A program made the translations under genes and the position numbers. Under the pieces are notes generated by a model, which saw only the letters and a list, made by a program, of their open reading frames with translations, had not been told where the DNA came from and searched no databases. Below are positions 1 to 49,591 of a stretch of 64,000 bases of DNA, in pieces. The first letter of the stretch is position 1; every line of letters begins with the position of its first letter. The DNA lies in the sequence record PZ019086.1. One strand, given 5' to 3'. The stretch is from a phage.

Positions 1-583
1 CCGCAACACATGGAATGTTTTTAATACTAAAATAAGGAGTAACAATACGGAATAATGACTTCAGTGATTTAGCACGAGTCATATCTGCCACAGATTTTTC
101 ATTCAAGGCATCTTCCGTTTCTTTCTTAGAAGCCATATTACCGATTGAGTCGATGAATACAATAACTTTTTCACCGCGCTCAATAGCTTCAAGCTGATTC
201 ACCATATCAATTTTCAGCTGTTCAACTGACTGGATTGGTGTATGAATTACTCGTTCCGGATCAACTCCCATGGATCGCAAATAAGCTGGAGTAATACCAA
301 ATTCGCTATCATAAAATAGACATACCGCGTCAGGATATTTGTTCAAATACGCCGCAACCATAGTCAAAGACATATTTGATTTAAAGTGTTTAGAAGGACC
401 TGCAAAAATGGTTAAACCAGACTGCATACCACCATCAATCGCACCAGAAATAGCGATATTAAGCATTGGAATTTTTGTACGGATTACATCCTTTTCATTA
501 AAGAATTTAGATGTAGTCAGTTCAGCAGTCATTTTAGAAGTGGAAGCTTTAATCAAACGGGATTTTAAATCTGCAATAGACAT
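1..583 (-). CDS. uvsX: UvsX RecA-like recombinase, N-terminal part (gene runs off the window start)
   Basis: Minus-strand frame with ATG at 583..581; translation MSIADLKSRLIKASTSKMTAELTTSKFF...GPSKHFKS... matches T4 UvsX N-terminus from memory; absent from ORF track because truncated at the edge. Confidence 0.85.
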   Translation of the reverse strand, partial: MSIADLKSRLIKASTSKMTAELTTSKFFNEKDVIRTKIPMLNIAISGAIDGGMQSGLTIFAGPSKHFKSNMSLTMVAAYLNKYPDAVCLFYDSEFGITPAYLRSMGVDPERVIHTPIQSVEQLKIDMVNQLEAIERGEKVIVFIDSIGNMASKKETEDALNEKSVADMTRAKSLKSLFRIVTPYFSIKNIPCVA

Positions 584-47680: not shown

Positions 47681-47810
47681 TTTTGTGAAAAATTTTTTAA
47701 AAAGTTTTAGGGAATTCTAGGGCAGGGAGGGGCAATTAAAGGATAGGATAATATATTATAAATGGTAGAAACTAAATGATGCCTAGAGAGGTCCAAAAAG
47801 GCCTAGATAC

Positions 47811-47838
47811 CAAAAAGCCCCAACCTTTCGGTCGGGGC
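47811..47838 (-). terminator. Rho-independent terminator ending the tRNA/stable-RNA transcription unit
   Basis: Minus-strand GCCCCGACC-GAAA-GGTTGGGGC stem-loop followed by TTTTT; approximate. Confidence 0.65.
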
Positions 47839-47845
47839 TAAGCCT

Positions 47846-48150
47846 TGCGGCAACCTTGTCGGGGTTCCACCTGCTAAGGCAAGTGTTTGTACGAAACGCC
47901 GGGATTCGAACCCGGTTATTAAGCAGTTGACGCTACTCAATATTTTTAAAAGGCCATATCTCGACCATATCCGAACGTTCCGTCAAAAACGCTACTCGGC
48001 TTACGGCAAAGATATTTCCTCGAATCGATAATTCTGTGCGCCGTTTCTGCTGTGATGTAAGGGGATATTAACAAATCGTAAAGATTTATTAAGACCAGTC
48101 CTTACTCAGGGAACATCAGTCCGACGACTTACCGGTAGCGACCCGGCTTC
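47846..48150 (-). ncRNA. Structured tRNA-like stable RNA region (candidate counterpart of T4 RNA species C/D)
   Basis: No ORF; locally GC-richer; a tRNA-like T-arm CCGGGTTCGAATCCCGG flanked by pairing GAAACG/CGTTTC; internal duplicate GAGTAGCGT; immediately downstream of tRNA-Arg and upstream of the terminator; boundaries approximate. Confidence 0.4.
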
Positions 48151-48155
48151 TTGTC

Positions 48156-48231
48156 TGGTCGAGGCAGTAGGGATCGAACCTACGACCTAGGACTTAGAAG
48201 GTCCTTGCTCTTCCTTCTGAGCTATGCCTCG
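48156..48231 (-). tRNA. tRNA-Arg (anticodon TCT), CCA encoded
   Basis: Manual cloverleaf: acceptor CGAGGCA/TGCCTCG, anticodon stem AGGAC/GTCCT, loop CTTCTAA, T-loop TTCGATC. Confidence 0.8.
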
Positions 48232-48235
48232 GATT

Positions 48236-48310
48236 TGGCGGACGTGATAGGATTCGAACCTATAACCAATCGCTTAACAGGCGATCGCTCTGCCATTGAG
48301 CTACACATCC
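48236..48310 (-). tRNA. tRNA-Asn (anticodon GTT), CCA encoded
   Basis: Manual cloverleaf: acceptor GGATGTG/CACGTCC (one G-U), D-stem GCTC/GAGC, anticodon stem ATCGC/GCGAT, loop CTGTTAA, T-arm ATAGG-TTCGAAT-CCTAT. Confidence 0.75.
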
Positions 48311-48314
48311 AAAT

Positions 48315-48401
48315 TGGTGGGGAGTGATGGAGTCGAACCACCCGAGTCGCAATGACAATGGATTTACAGTCCACACCGCTACCTCTACGGGATAACTCCC
48401 C
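48315..48401 (-). tRNA. tRNA-Tyr (anticodon GTA), long variable arm, CCA encoded
   Basis: Manual cloverleaf: acceptor GGGGAGT/ACTCCCC, anticodon stem GTGGA/TCCAT, loop CTGTAAA, long variable arm, T-loop TTCGACT; architecture parallels E. coli tRNA-Tyr. Confidence 0.7.
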
Positions 48402-48414
48402 TTAATTCTTAATT

Positions 48415-48489
48415 TGGTGGCCCTGGGTGGAATTGAACCACCATCTGGCGATTATGAGTCGCTTGCTTGAACCTTCCAGCTACAGGGCC
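48415..48489 (-). tRNA. tRNA-Ile (anticodon CAT, presumably lysidine-modified), CCA encoded
   Basis: Acceptor GGCCCTG/CAGGGCC, anticodon loop CTCATAA; Ile assignment follows T4 precedent, Met cannot be excluded from sequence alone. Confidence 0.7.
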
Positions 48490-48490
48490 T

Positions 48491-48566
48491 TGGTGCTGAT
48501 TGACGGAATCGAACCGCCGACCTTCTCATTACAAGTGAGTTGCTCTACCTACTGAGCTAAATCAGC
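48491..48566 (-). tRNA. tRNA-Thr (anticodon TGT), CCA encoded
   Basis: Acceptor GCTGATT/AATCAGC, anticodon stem ACTCA/TGAGA, loop CTTGTAA. Confidence 0.8.
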
Positions 48567-48571
48567 AAAAC

Positions 48572-48661
48572 TGGCGGAGGCGATAGGATTCGAACCTATG
48601 AGTCGCTGGAGCGACTGCCGGTTTTCAAGACCGGTGCATTAAACCACTCTGCCACGCCTCC
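48572..48661 (-). tRNA. tRNA-Ser (anticodon TGA), long variable arm, CCA encoded
   Basis: Acceptor GGAGGCG/CGCCTCC, anticodon stem CCGGT/ACCGG, loop CTTGAAA. Confidence 0.8.
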
Positions 48662-48663
48662 AG

Positions 48664-48737
48664 TCTCCGTGGCAGGATTTGAACCTGCGACATTCTGCTC
48701 CCAAAGCAGACGCTCTACCAAACTGAGCTACACGGAG
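48664..48737 (-). tRNA. tRNA-Pro (anticodon TGG), CCA not encoded
   Basis: Acceptor CTCCGTG/CACGGAG, anticodon stem TCTGC/GCAGA, loop TTTGGGA. Confidence 0.8.
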
Positions 48738-48747
48738 TAAATTAAAT

Positions 48748-48821
<74 letters not shown>

Positions 48822-48826
48822 AAATT

Positions 48827-48913
48827 TGGTGCGAGAAGTGGGACTCGAACCCACAAGGAAATCATTCCGCAGCATTTTAAGTGCTGTGCCTTTACCAATT
48901 TGACCATTCTCGC
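48827..48913 (-). tRNA. tRNA-Leu (anticodon TAA), long variable arm, CCA encoded
   Basis: Acceptor GCGAGAA/TTCTCGC, anticodon stem CAGCA/TGCTG, loop CTTAAAA. Confidence 0.8.
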
Positions 48914-48914
48914 G

Positions 48915-48987
48915 CTGGGAATAAAGGACTCGAACCTTTGCATCTAGCAGTCAAAGTGCTATGCCTTACCAACTTGGCTAATTCCCA
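48915..48987 (-). tRNA. tRNA-Gln (anticodon TTG), CCA not encoded; abuts tRNA-Leu (dimeric precursor)
   Basis: Acceptor TGGGAAT/ATTCCCA, anticodon stem TAGCA/TGCTA, loop CTTTGAC; boundaries consistent with ORF-track coordinates in this region. Confidence 0.8.
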
Positions 48988-49075
48988 ATTATTAACAAAG
49001 GCTCTCAAACAAGAACCCTTGATGATAGAGGGGGTATTAATCAGTGCGATATAAGTTAATAATAACACATAATTC

Positions 49076-49591
49076 TTAAAGCAAATCAATCATTTTAACA
49101 GTTGGCAAAACGATTTCTTCTTCAATATAAGCGAATTCAACACATTCAACTACACGCAAGAAATCATAATCATAATATTCAGAAGCATGGCCAAGAATAT
49201 CAATGAGACCTTCTGATACCAAATATCCATTCTCACGGAACAGGTCGAATACACGCGATTCGTCTTCTTCAGATTTATTACCAAGGTCGACTTCAATATC
49301 AAAGACCTTTTTAATGAATTCTGGATAAAGCTGGTCTGAGAACAGTCCTTCAACCAAGTATTCATAGATTAAAAGCGAGCAATCACTGAATAGTGTATTA
49401 CCACAGTAACGTTCAGCTTTAGTGCTAGAATGACGACTCTTAAATTTCTTCAAGAGATATTTAAACTGTTGGAGCTCATGCTCTTCTACACCAAATAATG
49501 TTTTGGTTTTATAGTTGTCGCCGTCATTTTCCCAAGTAGTGACATCAATTACGTAACCTTTAGGAATTGTACTGCCTAAACAAATATTCAT
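49076..49591 (-). CDS. Hypothetical acidic protein upstream of the tRNA cluster
   Basis: Start set to ATG at 49591 (MNICLGSTIPKGY...) with RBS. Confidence 0.55.
   Translation of the reverse strand: MNICLGSTIPKGYVIDVTTWENDGDNYKTKTLFGVEEHELQQFKYLLKKFKSRHSSTKAERYCGNTLFSDCSLLIYEYLVEGLFSDQLYPEFIKKVFDIEVDLGNKSEEDESRVFDLFRENGYLVSEGLIDILGHASEYYDYDFLRVVECVEFAYIEEEIVLPTVKMIDLL

Follow-up and report, generated by a model that had tools for sequence, protein, structure and literature searches.

In bacteriophage T4, a middle promoter just 5' of the tRNA cluster directs a single transcript ending past the species I RNA, such that the tRNAs and two stable RNAs are all carried on one precursor of ~1.75 kb, encoded by a region that is non-essential (PMC2330249). 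These stable RNAs, known since the 1970s and annotated as rnaC and rnaD in T4, RB3 and RB27, have been found to accumulate late by both northern blotting and RNA-seq, with rnaC seen on northern blots as a stable RNA of ~140 nt (PMC9697503). A 2010 report stated that 'their biological roles are unknown' (PMC3014915), and publications from 2022 (PMC9697503) and 2025 (PMC12685909) do likewise. Our search of the literature found no usable report of function, of p2Sp1/RNase F processing or of tRNA-deletion phenotypes.

Several other RNAs are informative for comparison. The tRNA-like transcripts of murine gammaherpesvirus 68 are virus-encoded, non-aminoacylated and non-decoding RNAs matured by host tRNA enzymes, the function of which was long unclear; their cloverleaf is of normal size, and microRNA hairpins are linked to them. 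The pRNA of phage phi29 has two complementary, covarying loops that pair between molecules, building a ring; to our knowledge, no RNA is needed for T4 packaging. Among the non-tRNA substrates of RNase P is tmRNA (PMC11143913).

Here we describe the equivalent locus in a 64,000 nt stretch of phage DNA (sequence record PZ019086.1), referred to as the window. As rnaC and rnaD are textbook T4 biology, their presence in a T4-like genome is to be expected; the comparison of homologues presented below concerns their structure, distribution and possible role.

Results

Location and identity of the two RNAs

The interval 47846-48150, read on the minus strand, is flanked by tRNA-Arg (48231-48156) and an intrinsic terminator (47839-47816). 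The gene order, tRNA-Arg, rnaD, rnaC, terminator and e.8, is that of T4. Coordinates for the two RNAs (Table 1) were transferred from the annotations of T4 and RB3, which differ from one another by 1-2 nt. The rnaC sequence is 98.6-100% identical to the copies in T4, RB3 and RB69 (98.6% over 145/145 nt for T4, 100% for RB3), and rnaD is 88% identical to that of T4 and 92% to that of RB3. On the basis of these matches, the interval is almost certainly the 3' end of a T4-type tRNA operon encoding rnaD (species 2) and rnaC (species 1), in keeping with a sequence-only reading that had linked it to the T4 species C and D RNAs. That reading is refined in two respects: the genes lie on the minus strand, and the interval also includes a conserved trailer, while its boundary omits the first 4 nt of rnaD.

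Table 1. Features of the tRNA operon and its 3' end in the window
Feature	Positions	Strand	Remarks
Candidate MotA-type middle promoter of the tRNA operon	49059-49085	-	pattern match only
Ten tRNA genes	48156-48987	-	ARAGORN and Rfam RF00005; upstream, same transcription unit
rnaD (species 2 RNA)	48035-48154	-	~120 nt; mapped from T4/RB3 annotations
Spacer GAAUUAU between rnaD and rnaC	48028-48034	-	5' leader of rnaC; U at position -1
rnaC (species 1 RNA)	47888-48027	-	140 nt; tRNA-like, cloverleaf topology; C1 = 48027
rnaC acceptor-like stem, 5' strand (C1-G7, CGAUUCG)	48021-48027	-	pairs with 47898-47892
rnaC hairpin 1 (nt 13-72), D-arm position	47956-48015	-	60 nt; apical loop UUGACG, 47986-47981
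rnaC hairpin 2 (nt 86-111), anticodon-arm position	47917-47942	-	10 bp; loop CGUCAA, 47932-47927
rnaC T-arm and acceptor 3' strand	47892-47915	-	T-arm CCGGG-UUCGAAU-CCCGG, 47915-47899; CGUUUCG, 47898-47892
rnaC 3' tail UACAA, in place of discriminator and CCA	47887-47891	-	read from sequence
Conserved 3' trailer	47840-47886	-	47 nt; part of neither rnaC nor rnaD
Intrinsic terminator	47808-47839	-	10-bp stem (7 G-C pairs), GAAA loop, U-run; kept in T4 and RB3

Neither RNA is represented by a family in Rfam 15. At gathering thresholds only the ten tRNAs were detected in the window, and at E values up to 10 nothing meaningful was found in 47700-48240, where the best sub-threshold match was to tRNA-Sec (16.6 bits, against a gathering score of 47). 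A covariance search had been suggested in the sequence-only reading; our own model of rnaC (R1) identified a single copy in the window, scoring 161.9 bits.

The tRNA genes are arranged in the order Gln, Leu, Gly, Pro, Ser, Thr, Met/Ile(CAU), Tyr, Asn and Arg, which is identical in phage RB3; those for tRNA-Gln and tRNA-Pro are without an encoded CCA, and the last of the ten is tRNA-Arg(UCU). The operon differs from that of T4 in the sequence of tRNA-Arg and in the replacement of segB by tRNA-Tyr and tRNA-Asn, as in RB3. The candidate promoter comprises a MotA box, TTTGCTTTA (49085-49077), and a -10-like TATTAT (49064-49059), and a pattern scan found no late-promoter TATAAATA between 47000 and 49600. 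Downstream, rnaD begins 2 nt past the CCA of tRNA-Arg, and the spacer between rnaD and rnaC is comparable in length to the 6-9 nt gaps that separate upstream tRNAs from rnaC in other genera. The trailer, ACACUUGCCUUAGCAGGUGGAACCCCGACAAGGUUGCCGCAAGGCUU, differs little or not at all in T4, RB3 and RB69, and in JS10 lies directly 3' of rnaD; small hairpins are predicted within it, and together with the terminator it folds with z = -4.1. The terminator hairpin is AGCCCCGACC-GAAA-GGUUGGGGCU, followed by UUUUU.

Composition and coding potential

With a G+C content of 46.9%, the interval is richer than the window (34.9%) and its own flanks (~34%), as first noticed from the letters, and falls at the 98.8th percentile of 305-nt windows. 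Its open reading frames are all of 45 aa or fewer and all begin with TTG. Among 35 homologues the longest open frame varies in both frame and strand, and therefore no ORF is conserved; the absence of a plausible ORF between tRNA-Arg and the terminator was thus rightly noted at the outset, and no protein-coding gene spanning the interval, which would have spoken against a non-coding region, was found. Many GenBank records contain spurious 'hypothetical protein' CDSs over rnaC and rnaD.

An internal duplication, also reported previously, consists of the 9-mer GAGTAGCGT at 47997-47989 and 47938-47930 on the minus strand. As an exact 9-mer repeat appears in 12% of shuffles of the interval, it is weak evidence taken alone. 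The two copies form the 5' strands of the two rnaC hairpins that have mutually complementary loops.

Secondary structure of rnaC

The predicted fold of rnaC has a free energy of -50.2 kcal/mol (z = -4.6). In the comparison set of 35 distinct homologues from at least nine genera, 92-94% of cells pair under the model, as against 38-47% when the partner is slid, and the observed pairing values were matched by 0/500 shuffles. Compensatory changes were found at 22/54 pairs with 19 sequences and at 35/54 pairs with 35 sequences, with alignment A4 being based on a covariance model and hence biased towards the modelled structure. Judged from this comparative evidence, the secondary structure is very likely as modelled. 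It has the topology of a tRNA cloverleaf with no decoding function.

The 5' and 3' ends of rnaC form a 7 bp acceptor-like stem, containing a conserved tandem U.U, that abuts the T-arm. Compensatory changes in this stem include the replacement of A3-U134 by G3-C134 in 20 sequences and of the tandem U.U by U-A and C-G in Tegunavirus. The sequence-only reading had recognised both the perfect T-arm and a flanking acceptor-like pairing, and the latter is real; however, if the internal ACGGAACG was intended as the partner, this part does not stand, as the true partner is CGAUUCG at the 5' end of rnaC. The rival pairing of ACGGAACG (47983-47976) with CGUUUCGU shows no compensatory changes and falls below the shuffles on all measures. 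The Rfam match to tRNA-Sec relies on this internal pairing, which covariation rejects. In the T-stem, 2/5 pairs covary, and in the genus Kanagawavirus the T-loop is a non-canonical UGCAUGC; therefore, a canonical T-loop is not universally required.

Helices 2 and 3 have compensatory changes at 20/26 pairs; among the 26 are the three basal pairs 8-10/75-77, which are invariant or nearly so and lie outside the hairpin 1 interval. The stem of hairpin 1 has been fully replaced in the version found in Gelderlandvirus, Edwardsiella and Kosakonia and in that of Marfavirus, with the loop motif retained in both. Despite these unrelated hairpin 1 sequences, the length of rnaC is constant at 141-145 nt. 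In hairpin 2, 9/10 pairs have compensatory changes, and the minimum-free-energy register gains compensatory pairs. An alternative register with a 7-nt 'anticodon-like' loop (C97-G105, in another numbering) was rejected by inspection, because a G-to-A change in T4 and the KM16 sequence break it.

The CGUCAA loop of hairpin 2 is the exact reverse complement of the UUGACG loop of hairpin 1. All lettered cells of the alignment pair at the six positions of the putative loop-loop helix, two of which have been altered on both sides: the loops are UUGAUG/CAUCAA in Tegunavirus and UUGGCG/CGCCAA in Marfavirus, independent double changes each confined to one lineage. Since the apical hexaloops are both complementary and co-varying, they probably pair, and may do so intramolecularly or intermolecularly, as the covariation fits both arrangements.

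The 3' tail also varies between phages. Tegunavirus has UUCAA, one Kanagawavirus has UAUAA, and Marfavirus has UCCAA, in which a CCA is encoded.

Distribution of rnaC

In EcS1, ZX14, TG1, CF-SP2 and Ursula, rnaC is spaced as if it were a member of a tRNA array, lying 6-9 nt past tRNA-Phe, -Met or -Trp and 4-7 nt ahead of tRNA-Trp or -Gly; in EcS1, TG1, CF-SP2 and Ursula it is in the middle of the array rather than at the 3' end of the operon. Conversely, JS10 has rnaD, the trailer and the terminator with rnaC precisely missing. Hence rnaC is a self-contained cassette, found without rnaD just as rnaD is found without rnaC.

At a threshold of at least 99% identity, rnaC is matched in 491/748 phage records, as against 33/735 for the adjacent rnaD. 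The flanks in the window are 92-94% identical to RB69. Recent exchange between phages could partly account for the extreme conservation of rnaC. A search of IMG/VR with loop-unconstrained patterns recovered only T4-like contigs and GC-rich chance matches, and no further type of rnaC emerged from the metagenome scan. Similarly, 38 chance matches to the motif were found in 185,579 species genomes, none of which matched the covariance model at E values up to 1; within the limits of the search motif, no bacterial copy of rnaC was found.

Structure and variation of rnaD

The second RNA, rnaD, forms a hairpin RNA of its own, in which the 5' and 3' parts are invariant and the tip is hypervariable. 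Its predicted fold has a free energy of -36.7 kcal/mol (z = -3.5), and the consensus structure comprises 24 pairs, with compensatory changes at 6. A 5' hairpin, GCCGG-GUCGCUA-CCGGU (48147-48131, minus strand), has an invariant 7-nt loop, GUCGCUA, and the basal helices, in which GUCGUCG pairs with CGGCGCAC, are conserved. The central hairpin exists in at least three unrelated versions of differing length, set between the invariant ends. It differs between the window and T4, in which the RNAs end ...GCGCACAG and ...GCGCACCA, respectively. When the T4-like phage BW-1 adapted to host ECOR34, one convergent SNP in rnaD, at position 164264, arose in 3/3 lines (PMC12685909), making rnaD the site of the only published adaptive mutation.

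Discussion

Comparison with tRNAs and other structured RNAs

With canonical tRNAs (RF00005), rnaC shares a four-way junction, a 7-bp end stem, an adjoining 5-bp T-stem with a UUCGAAU loop, the spacing typical of tRNA arrays and a tail consisting of a discriminator and 3 nt ending in CA. Of the hallmarks of a tRNA, it has the 7-bp acceptor stem contiguous with the T-arm, both of which have compensatory changes (helices 1 and 6), whereas the D arm, 5-bp anticodon stem and 7-nt anticodon loop of the canonical cloverleaf are lacking, as is an encoded 3' NCCA (the tail being UACAA). It is twice the length of a tRNA, with a 60-nt hairpin as the D arm, an anticodon arm of 10 bp with a 6-nt loop, a tandem U.U in the acceptor stem and, in the window, ACA in the CCA position. 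As the loop of the anticodon arm is predicted to pair with that of the D arm, there is no anticodon. ARAGORN made no call for rnaC, and RF00005 gave no match at E values up to 10. Like the tRNA-like domain of tmRNA, rnaC joins an acceptor stem and T-arm to a large non-tRNA insert, but it has neither a G3.U70 pair nor a tag reading frame, and is called as tmRNA by neither ARAGORN nor Rfam. It is unrelated in sequence and host to the gammaherpesvirus 68 RNAs, and its likeness to phi29 pRNA is limited to complementary, covarying loops, with no sequence or structural homology.

Overall, the locus is probably best explained as the end of a T4-type operon comprising rnaD, a tRNA-like rnaC, the trailer and the terminator.

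Processing and possible function

Both RNAs would be cut from the polycistronic tRNA precursor by the tRNA-processing machinery of the host. Maturation of rnaC may proceed through RNase P cleavage at C1, as suggested by the geometry of the stem and T-arm, the U at position -1 and the start of the RB3 annotation at C1, followed by 3' trimming. The 3' end could then be rebuilt by the CCA-adding enzyme, which is also needed for tRNA-Gln and tRNA-Pro from this operon, neither of which has an encoded CCA. Once matured, rnaC might work in trans by virtue of its shape, mimicking a tRNA without decoding and occupying a factor that recognises the acceptor/T-arm end; candidate targets would be an enzyme of processing or repair, or a host defence directed at tRNAs. 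We put this forward as the most likely role only tentatively, from the shape and conservation of the RNA, and it may well prove incorrect. The presence of UACA rather than NCCA in the tail of the window copy would weaken recognition by CCA-reading enzymes, which argues against such mimicry. The variable hairpin of rnaD, in turn, may mediate a host-specific interaction.

The two RNAs could instead act only in cis or have no role, being structured spacers or pseudo-tRNAs that aid processing of the precursor, perhaps as an entry site for RNase P or RNase E or as a 3' cap against exonucleases, and that persist afterwards as inert, nuclease-resistant by-products. Their co-transcription with the tRNAs, their position at the operon 3' end in T4-type phages and the dispensability of the region in the laboratory (PMC2330249) all fit such a scheme, as does the fact that no target or partner of the RNAs is known (PMC3014915, PMC9697503), and strong structure by itself would give stability. 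Yet the mid-array copies indicate that rnaC is not bound to the operon 3' end, the JS10 operon is processed without it, and a plain processing signal needs no loop-loop pairing, tandem U.U, constant length of 141-145 nt or near-total identity over 140 nt, leaving this explanation rather doubtful. We regard it as quite improbable that either RNA is an antisense regulator base-pairing with phage or host mRNAs. Small, abundant and late-accumulating, they have been termed 'small regulatory RNAs', albeit without a test (PMC9697503), and the invariant 7-nt loop of rnaD might suit such a function; nevertheless, nearly all the conserved nucleotides of rnaC are engaged in internal pairing, and on neither strand of the remaining 63.6 kb of the window is there complementarity of at least 13 nt to rnaC or rnaD, with nothing better than A/T-rich 12-mers, about as numerous as expected by chance.

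An acceptor-like stem and T-arm would also be expected of an RNA that can be charged, whether as an aminoacylated mimic or as a rescue RNA resembling tmRNA. It could be added that U-CCA is encoded at the right distance in Marfavirus copies and that the 3' end of the window copy might be rebuilt to CCA like those of tRNA-Gln and tRNA-Pro; C1-U137 plus CCA amounts to 140 nt, as does rnaC in the RB3 annotation. This is nonetheless very unlikely: neither ARAGORN nor Rfam gave a tmRNA or tRNA match to rnaC above noise, pair 3:70 is A-U or G-C and never G.U, no reading frame is conserved, and the tail encoded in most genera has ACA, UCA or AUA in place of CCA. In addition, we know of no E. coli tRNA identity set that corresponds to a stem with a tandem U.U, C1-G72 and U73. 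Conservation might alternatively operate on the DNA, with the locus serving as the landing pad or target of a homing endonuclease, or as a recombination hotspot of the tRNA region. In tRNA genes SegB recognises the conserved T-psi-C stem-loop motif, and in T4 x T2 crosses neighbouring sequence is converted when it homes (PMC2330249); a motif of this type, GGTTCGAATCC, is present within rnaC, and the region is mosaic among phages. Compensatory substitutions preserving 35 RNA pairs, including the long-range loop-loop helix, would be unexpected under selection of this kind, however, and stable transcripts have been documented in T4 (PMC9697503), making it extremely unlikely. As for a small protein, the TTG-initiated ORFs of 42-45 aa and the automatically annotated 'hypothetical protein' CDSs covering rnaC or rnaD count for little when substitutions track base-pairing rather than codons, the longest open frame switches frame and strand among homologues, and the central part of rnaD is swapped for unrelated sequences of differing length; its probability is negligible.

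Implications

The element itself was already known; new here are the covarying, putative loop-loop helix in an rnaC of tRNA topology, and the occurrence of rnaC as a cassette in the tRNA arrays of at least nine genera. The comparative model provides defined nucleotides to mutate and a covariance model for annotation, along with natural variants such as the NCA tail of most genera and the true CCA of Marfavirus. A more speculative extension of the mimicry proposal, which we consider unlikely, is that rnaC is a trans-acting decoy, a rigid frame locked by its loops that misleads a factor acting on tRNA ends, with the rnaD hairpin providing host-specific counter-defence. The sequestered factor would be a tRNA-directed defence nuclease, a nucleotidyltransferase or a processing enzyme, and in a variant of this proposal the complementary loops would pair between molecules to build multimers. 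Were the decoy proposal true, rnaC and rnaD would be anti-defence cassettes made of RNA and moving within the tRNA arrays of phages.

Identity of the interval

A 461-nt query around the flagged interval (47846-48150), the stretch from tRNA-Arg to an intrinsic terminator, matched 772 phage records, nearly all of Tequatrovirus and its relatives and with hosts that were, in nearly all cases, Escherichia, Shigella, Yersinia or Salmonella; on sequence, the source of the window is assigned to a T4-like phage. On the minus strand of T4 (NC_000866), tRNA-Arg is followed by rnaD ('species 2 RNA'), rnaC ('species 1 RNA') and e.8, and both RNA genes are also annotated in the RB3 and RB27 records. The aligned rnaC is 98.6% identical to that of T4 and 100% to that of RB3, the equivalent figures for rnaD being 88% and 92%. 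These identities and annotations support the sequence-only reading, in which the interval was probably the two stable RNAs of T4. The identification is correct; the element was already known, and finding it in a T4-like phage is no surprise. Rfam 15 contains no family for either RNA.

The descriptive claims of that reading were also borne out. The interval lacks a plausible ORF (the longest are ≤45 aa, every one TTG-started) and is GC-rich: with 46.9% G+C, where the window has 34.9%, it ranks at the 98.8th percentile of 305-nt windows. It contains the tRNA-like T-arm CCGGG-TTCGAAT-CCCGG and a duplicated 9-mer, GAGTAGCGT, at 47997-47989 and 47938-47930. The repeat is weak by itself, since some exact 9-mer repeat occurs in 12% of shuffles; its two copies are the 5' strands of rnaC hairpins 1 and 2. 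Relative to shuffled sequence, the stability of the predicted fold has z = -4.6 for rnaC and z = -3.5 for rnaD. Many GenBank records carry automatic 'hypothetical protein' CDSs over these genes, some with ribosome-binding-site features, and in a few, part of rnaC is entered as tRNA-Lys, tRNA-Phe or tRNA-Met; such entries appear to be mistaken annotation.

Features of the tRNA operon and of rnaC (nt: rnaC numbering, C1 = 48027)
Feature	Position	Strand	Basis or remark
Candidate T4-type middle promoter (MotA-box/-10 pair)	49085-49059	minus	sequence resemblance; just upstream of tRNAs
Ten tRNA genes: Gln, Leu, Gly, Pro, Ser, Thr, Met/Ile(CAU), Tyr, Asn, Arg	48987 to 48156	minus	
rnaD	48154-48035	minus	window aligned with T4 and RB3
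rnaC	48027-47888 (RB3 annotation, 140 nt); 48028-47890 (T4 annotation)	minus	alignment
rnaC acceptor-like stem	nt 1-7 with 130-136		
rnaC 3-bp helix	nt 8-10 with 75-77		
rnaC hairpin 1	nt 13-72		long composite
rnaC A-rich linker	between hairpin 1 region and 10-bp hairpin		
rnaC hairpin 2	nt 86-111		10 bp
rnaC T-arm	nt 113-129 (47915-47899)	minus	directly adjoins 3' strand of acceptor-like stem
rnaC tail			U-A-C-A-A
Strong intrinsic terminator	47839-47816	minus	

Setting in the tRNA operon

The tRNA gene set of the window is the same as that of RB3. In T4, a single precursor of ~1.75 kb holds the tRNAs and both RNAs and stops after species I; the region is dispensable (PMC2330249). [quoted passage not shown] The tRNA-Arg sequence differs from that of T4, though the adjoining rnaD/rnaC segment is conserved. 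The tRNA with anticodon CAU (48415-48489, minus) is called 'Met' by ARAGORN and the RB3 record, but is probably a lysidine-dependent tRNA-Ile, because T4 annotates tRNA-Ile in the corresponding position after tRNA-Thr. The structure of tRNA-Tyr (48315-48401, minus) may be unusual, as its low score against the Rfam tRNA model suggests (30.2 bits at a threshold of 29; the other nine score 59-74 bits). Beyond the terminator, ~100 nt without a plausible ORF (47700-47806, minus) precede an e.8-like ORF (47617-47342) and contain an inverted repeat, CUAGGCC...CUCUAGG, and a C-rich stretch, CCCCUCCCUGCCCUAG.

Fold of rnaC

Homologues of rnaC from a phage collection, IMG/VR and metagenomes comprised 35 distinct sequences, representing Tequatrovirus, Mosigvirus, Gaprivervirus, Kagamiyamavirus, Kanagawavirus, Moonvirus, Tegunavirus, Gelderlandvirus, Marfavirus and unclassified relatives. 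In the covariance-model alignment of all 35, which is fitted to the model and hence leans to structure, 92.2% of cells pair and 35 of 54 pairs show compensatory changes, values reached by 0/500 shuffles. A MAFFT alignment of 19 sequences, serving as an independent check, has pairing in 93.6% of cells, vs 38-45% with partners slid 1-3 columns, and compensatory changes at 22/54 pairs.

The acceptor-like pairing reported to flank the T-arm exists and covaries, its partner being the 5' end of rnaC, CGAUUCG: pair 3 is A-U in 14 sequences and G-C in 20, while a tandem U.U, kept in 32-33 of the 35, is U-A and C-G in Tegunavirus. The internal partner implied by a weak Rfam tRNA-Sec match did not stand, as pairing the 3' strand CGUUUCGU with ACGGAACG gave 0 compensatory changes and a score lower than that of any shuffle. 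Since the 3' strand pairs with the 5' end, rnaC has the topology of a tRNA cloverleaf, in which the 'D arm' is greatly expanded and the 'anticodon arm' lacks an anticodon. Kanagawavirus-type rnaC retains the T-stem around a palindromic T-loop, UGCAUGC rather than UUCGAAU, so the canonical T-loop is not required in that genus.

Complementarity of the hairpin loops

Loop 1 (UUGACG, 47986-47981) and loop 2 (CGUCAA, 47932-47927) are exact reverse complements, and 6/6 positions pair in every sequence. At two positions both sides have changed, each in its own lineage: Tegunavirus has UUGAUG with CAUCAA, and Klebsiella phages of Marfavirus type have UUGGCG with CGCCAA. Even where the hairpin 1 stem is swapped for unrelated sequence (Gelderlandvirus, Edwardsiella, Kosakonia and Marfavirus versions), the loop motif and a total length of 141-145 nt are retained. 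The covarying complementarity points to pairing that may be intra- or intermolecular, covariation being blind to which. The papers searched, which exclude the 1970s sequence papers, make no mention of it.

Modularity and conservation

In EcS1, ZX14, TG1, CF-SP2 and Ursula, all of which lack rnaD, rnaC lies 6-9 nt downstream of a tRNA gene, and in EcS1, TG1 and CF-SP2 the next tRNA gene follows 4-7 nt past it. Conversely, the Dhakavirus JS10 (L084 2500-2700) has rnaD followed directly by trailer and terminator, with rnaC exactly missing at a clean junction (...GGCGCACAGA|ACACUUGCC...) and no match to the rnaC covariance model at the locus. Given these arrangements, rnaC behaves as a tRNA-gene-sized cassette, with rnaD and the trailer a separate unit. 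The covariance model finds a single copy in the window, and scanning 185,579 species genomes of bacteria and archaea for the motif returned chance matches only. In Marfavirus genomes (L027, L032, L033, L089), the place that rnaD has in T4-type phages is taken by a different element of ~60 nt, ~65 nt upstream of rnaC. A GGGGUGG/CCCACCCC hairpin closes this element, and on its other side lies a tRNA gene (tRNA-Met in Marfa, L089).

Within the same genomes rnaD is far less conserved than rnaC, with 33/735 records at ≥99% identity vs 491/748. Its 5' hairpin (GCCGG-GUCGCUA-CCGGU) and basal helices are invariant, and enclose a central hairpin with at least three unrelated versions. The sole published adaptive change in the region is an rnaD SNP in phage BW-1, common to 3/3 lines after evolution on ECOR34, a semi-permissive host (PMC12685909); from the published coordinates alone, it would lie in the variable hairpin, ~70 nt from the start of rnaD.

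Processing and possible function

Host tRNA-processing enzymes would release both RNAs from the tRNA precursor. RNase P would cut at C1 of rnaC (48027), a site consistent with where the stem and T-arm lie, with U at -1 and with the start of the RB3 annotation. At the 3' end, UACA may be kept or rebuilt to UCCA, giving 140 nt either way; Marfavirus copies encode UCCA outright. The CCA-rebuilding pathway is in use in this operon, since neither tRNA-Gln (48914-48987, minus; one C, then tRNA-Leu) nor tRNA-Pro (48663-48737, minus; ACU, then tRNA-Ser) encodes CCA; as in T4, both need 3' trimming and then the host CCA-adding enzyme to rebuild the end.

The 'biological roles are unknown' for both RNAs in 2010 (PMC3014915), northern-validated late RNAs were 'of yet unknown functions' in 2022 (PMC9697503), and function was still called unknown in 2025 (PMC12685909). 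rnaC is unable to decode, and its near-invariance, fixed size and tertiary contact argue that it would act in trans through its shape. Most likely, albeit tentatively, it would be a tRNA mimic engaging a factor that reads the acceptor/T-arm end. The main rival, a purely cis role or by-product status, is judged only slightly less likely. Readings as a chargeable tmRNA-like RNA, as a DNA-level element or as a protein-coding gene are each contradicted by specific tests, and an antisense role for either RNA finds no support from complementarity within the 64-kb window. The rnaD loop with its closing base, CGCUAC (loop 48142-48136), is complementary to GUAGCG in both duplicated rnaC motif copies (47995-47990 and 47936-47931), sites mostly in paired stem in the rnaC fold (5 nt per copy); this 6-nt match may be chance, or relevant in the precursor only.

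The structural and comparative model of rnaC and rnaD reveals no function, which is a long-standing question, but provides testable detail, and its covariance model could seed an Rfam family.
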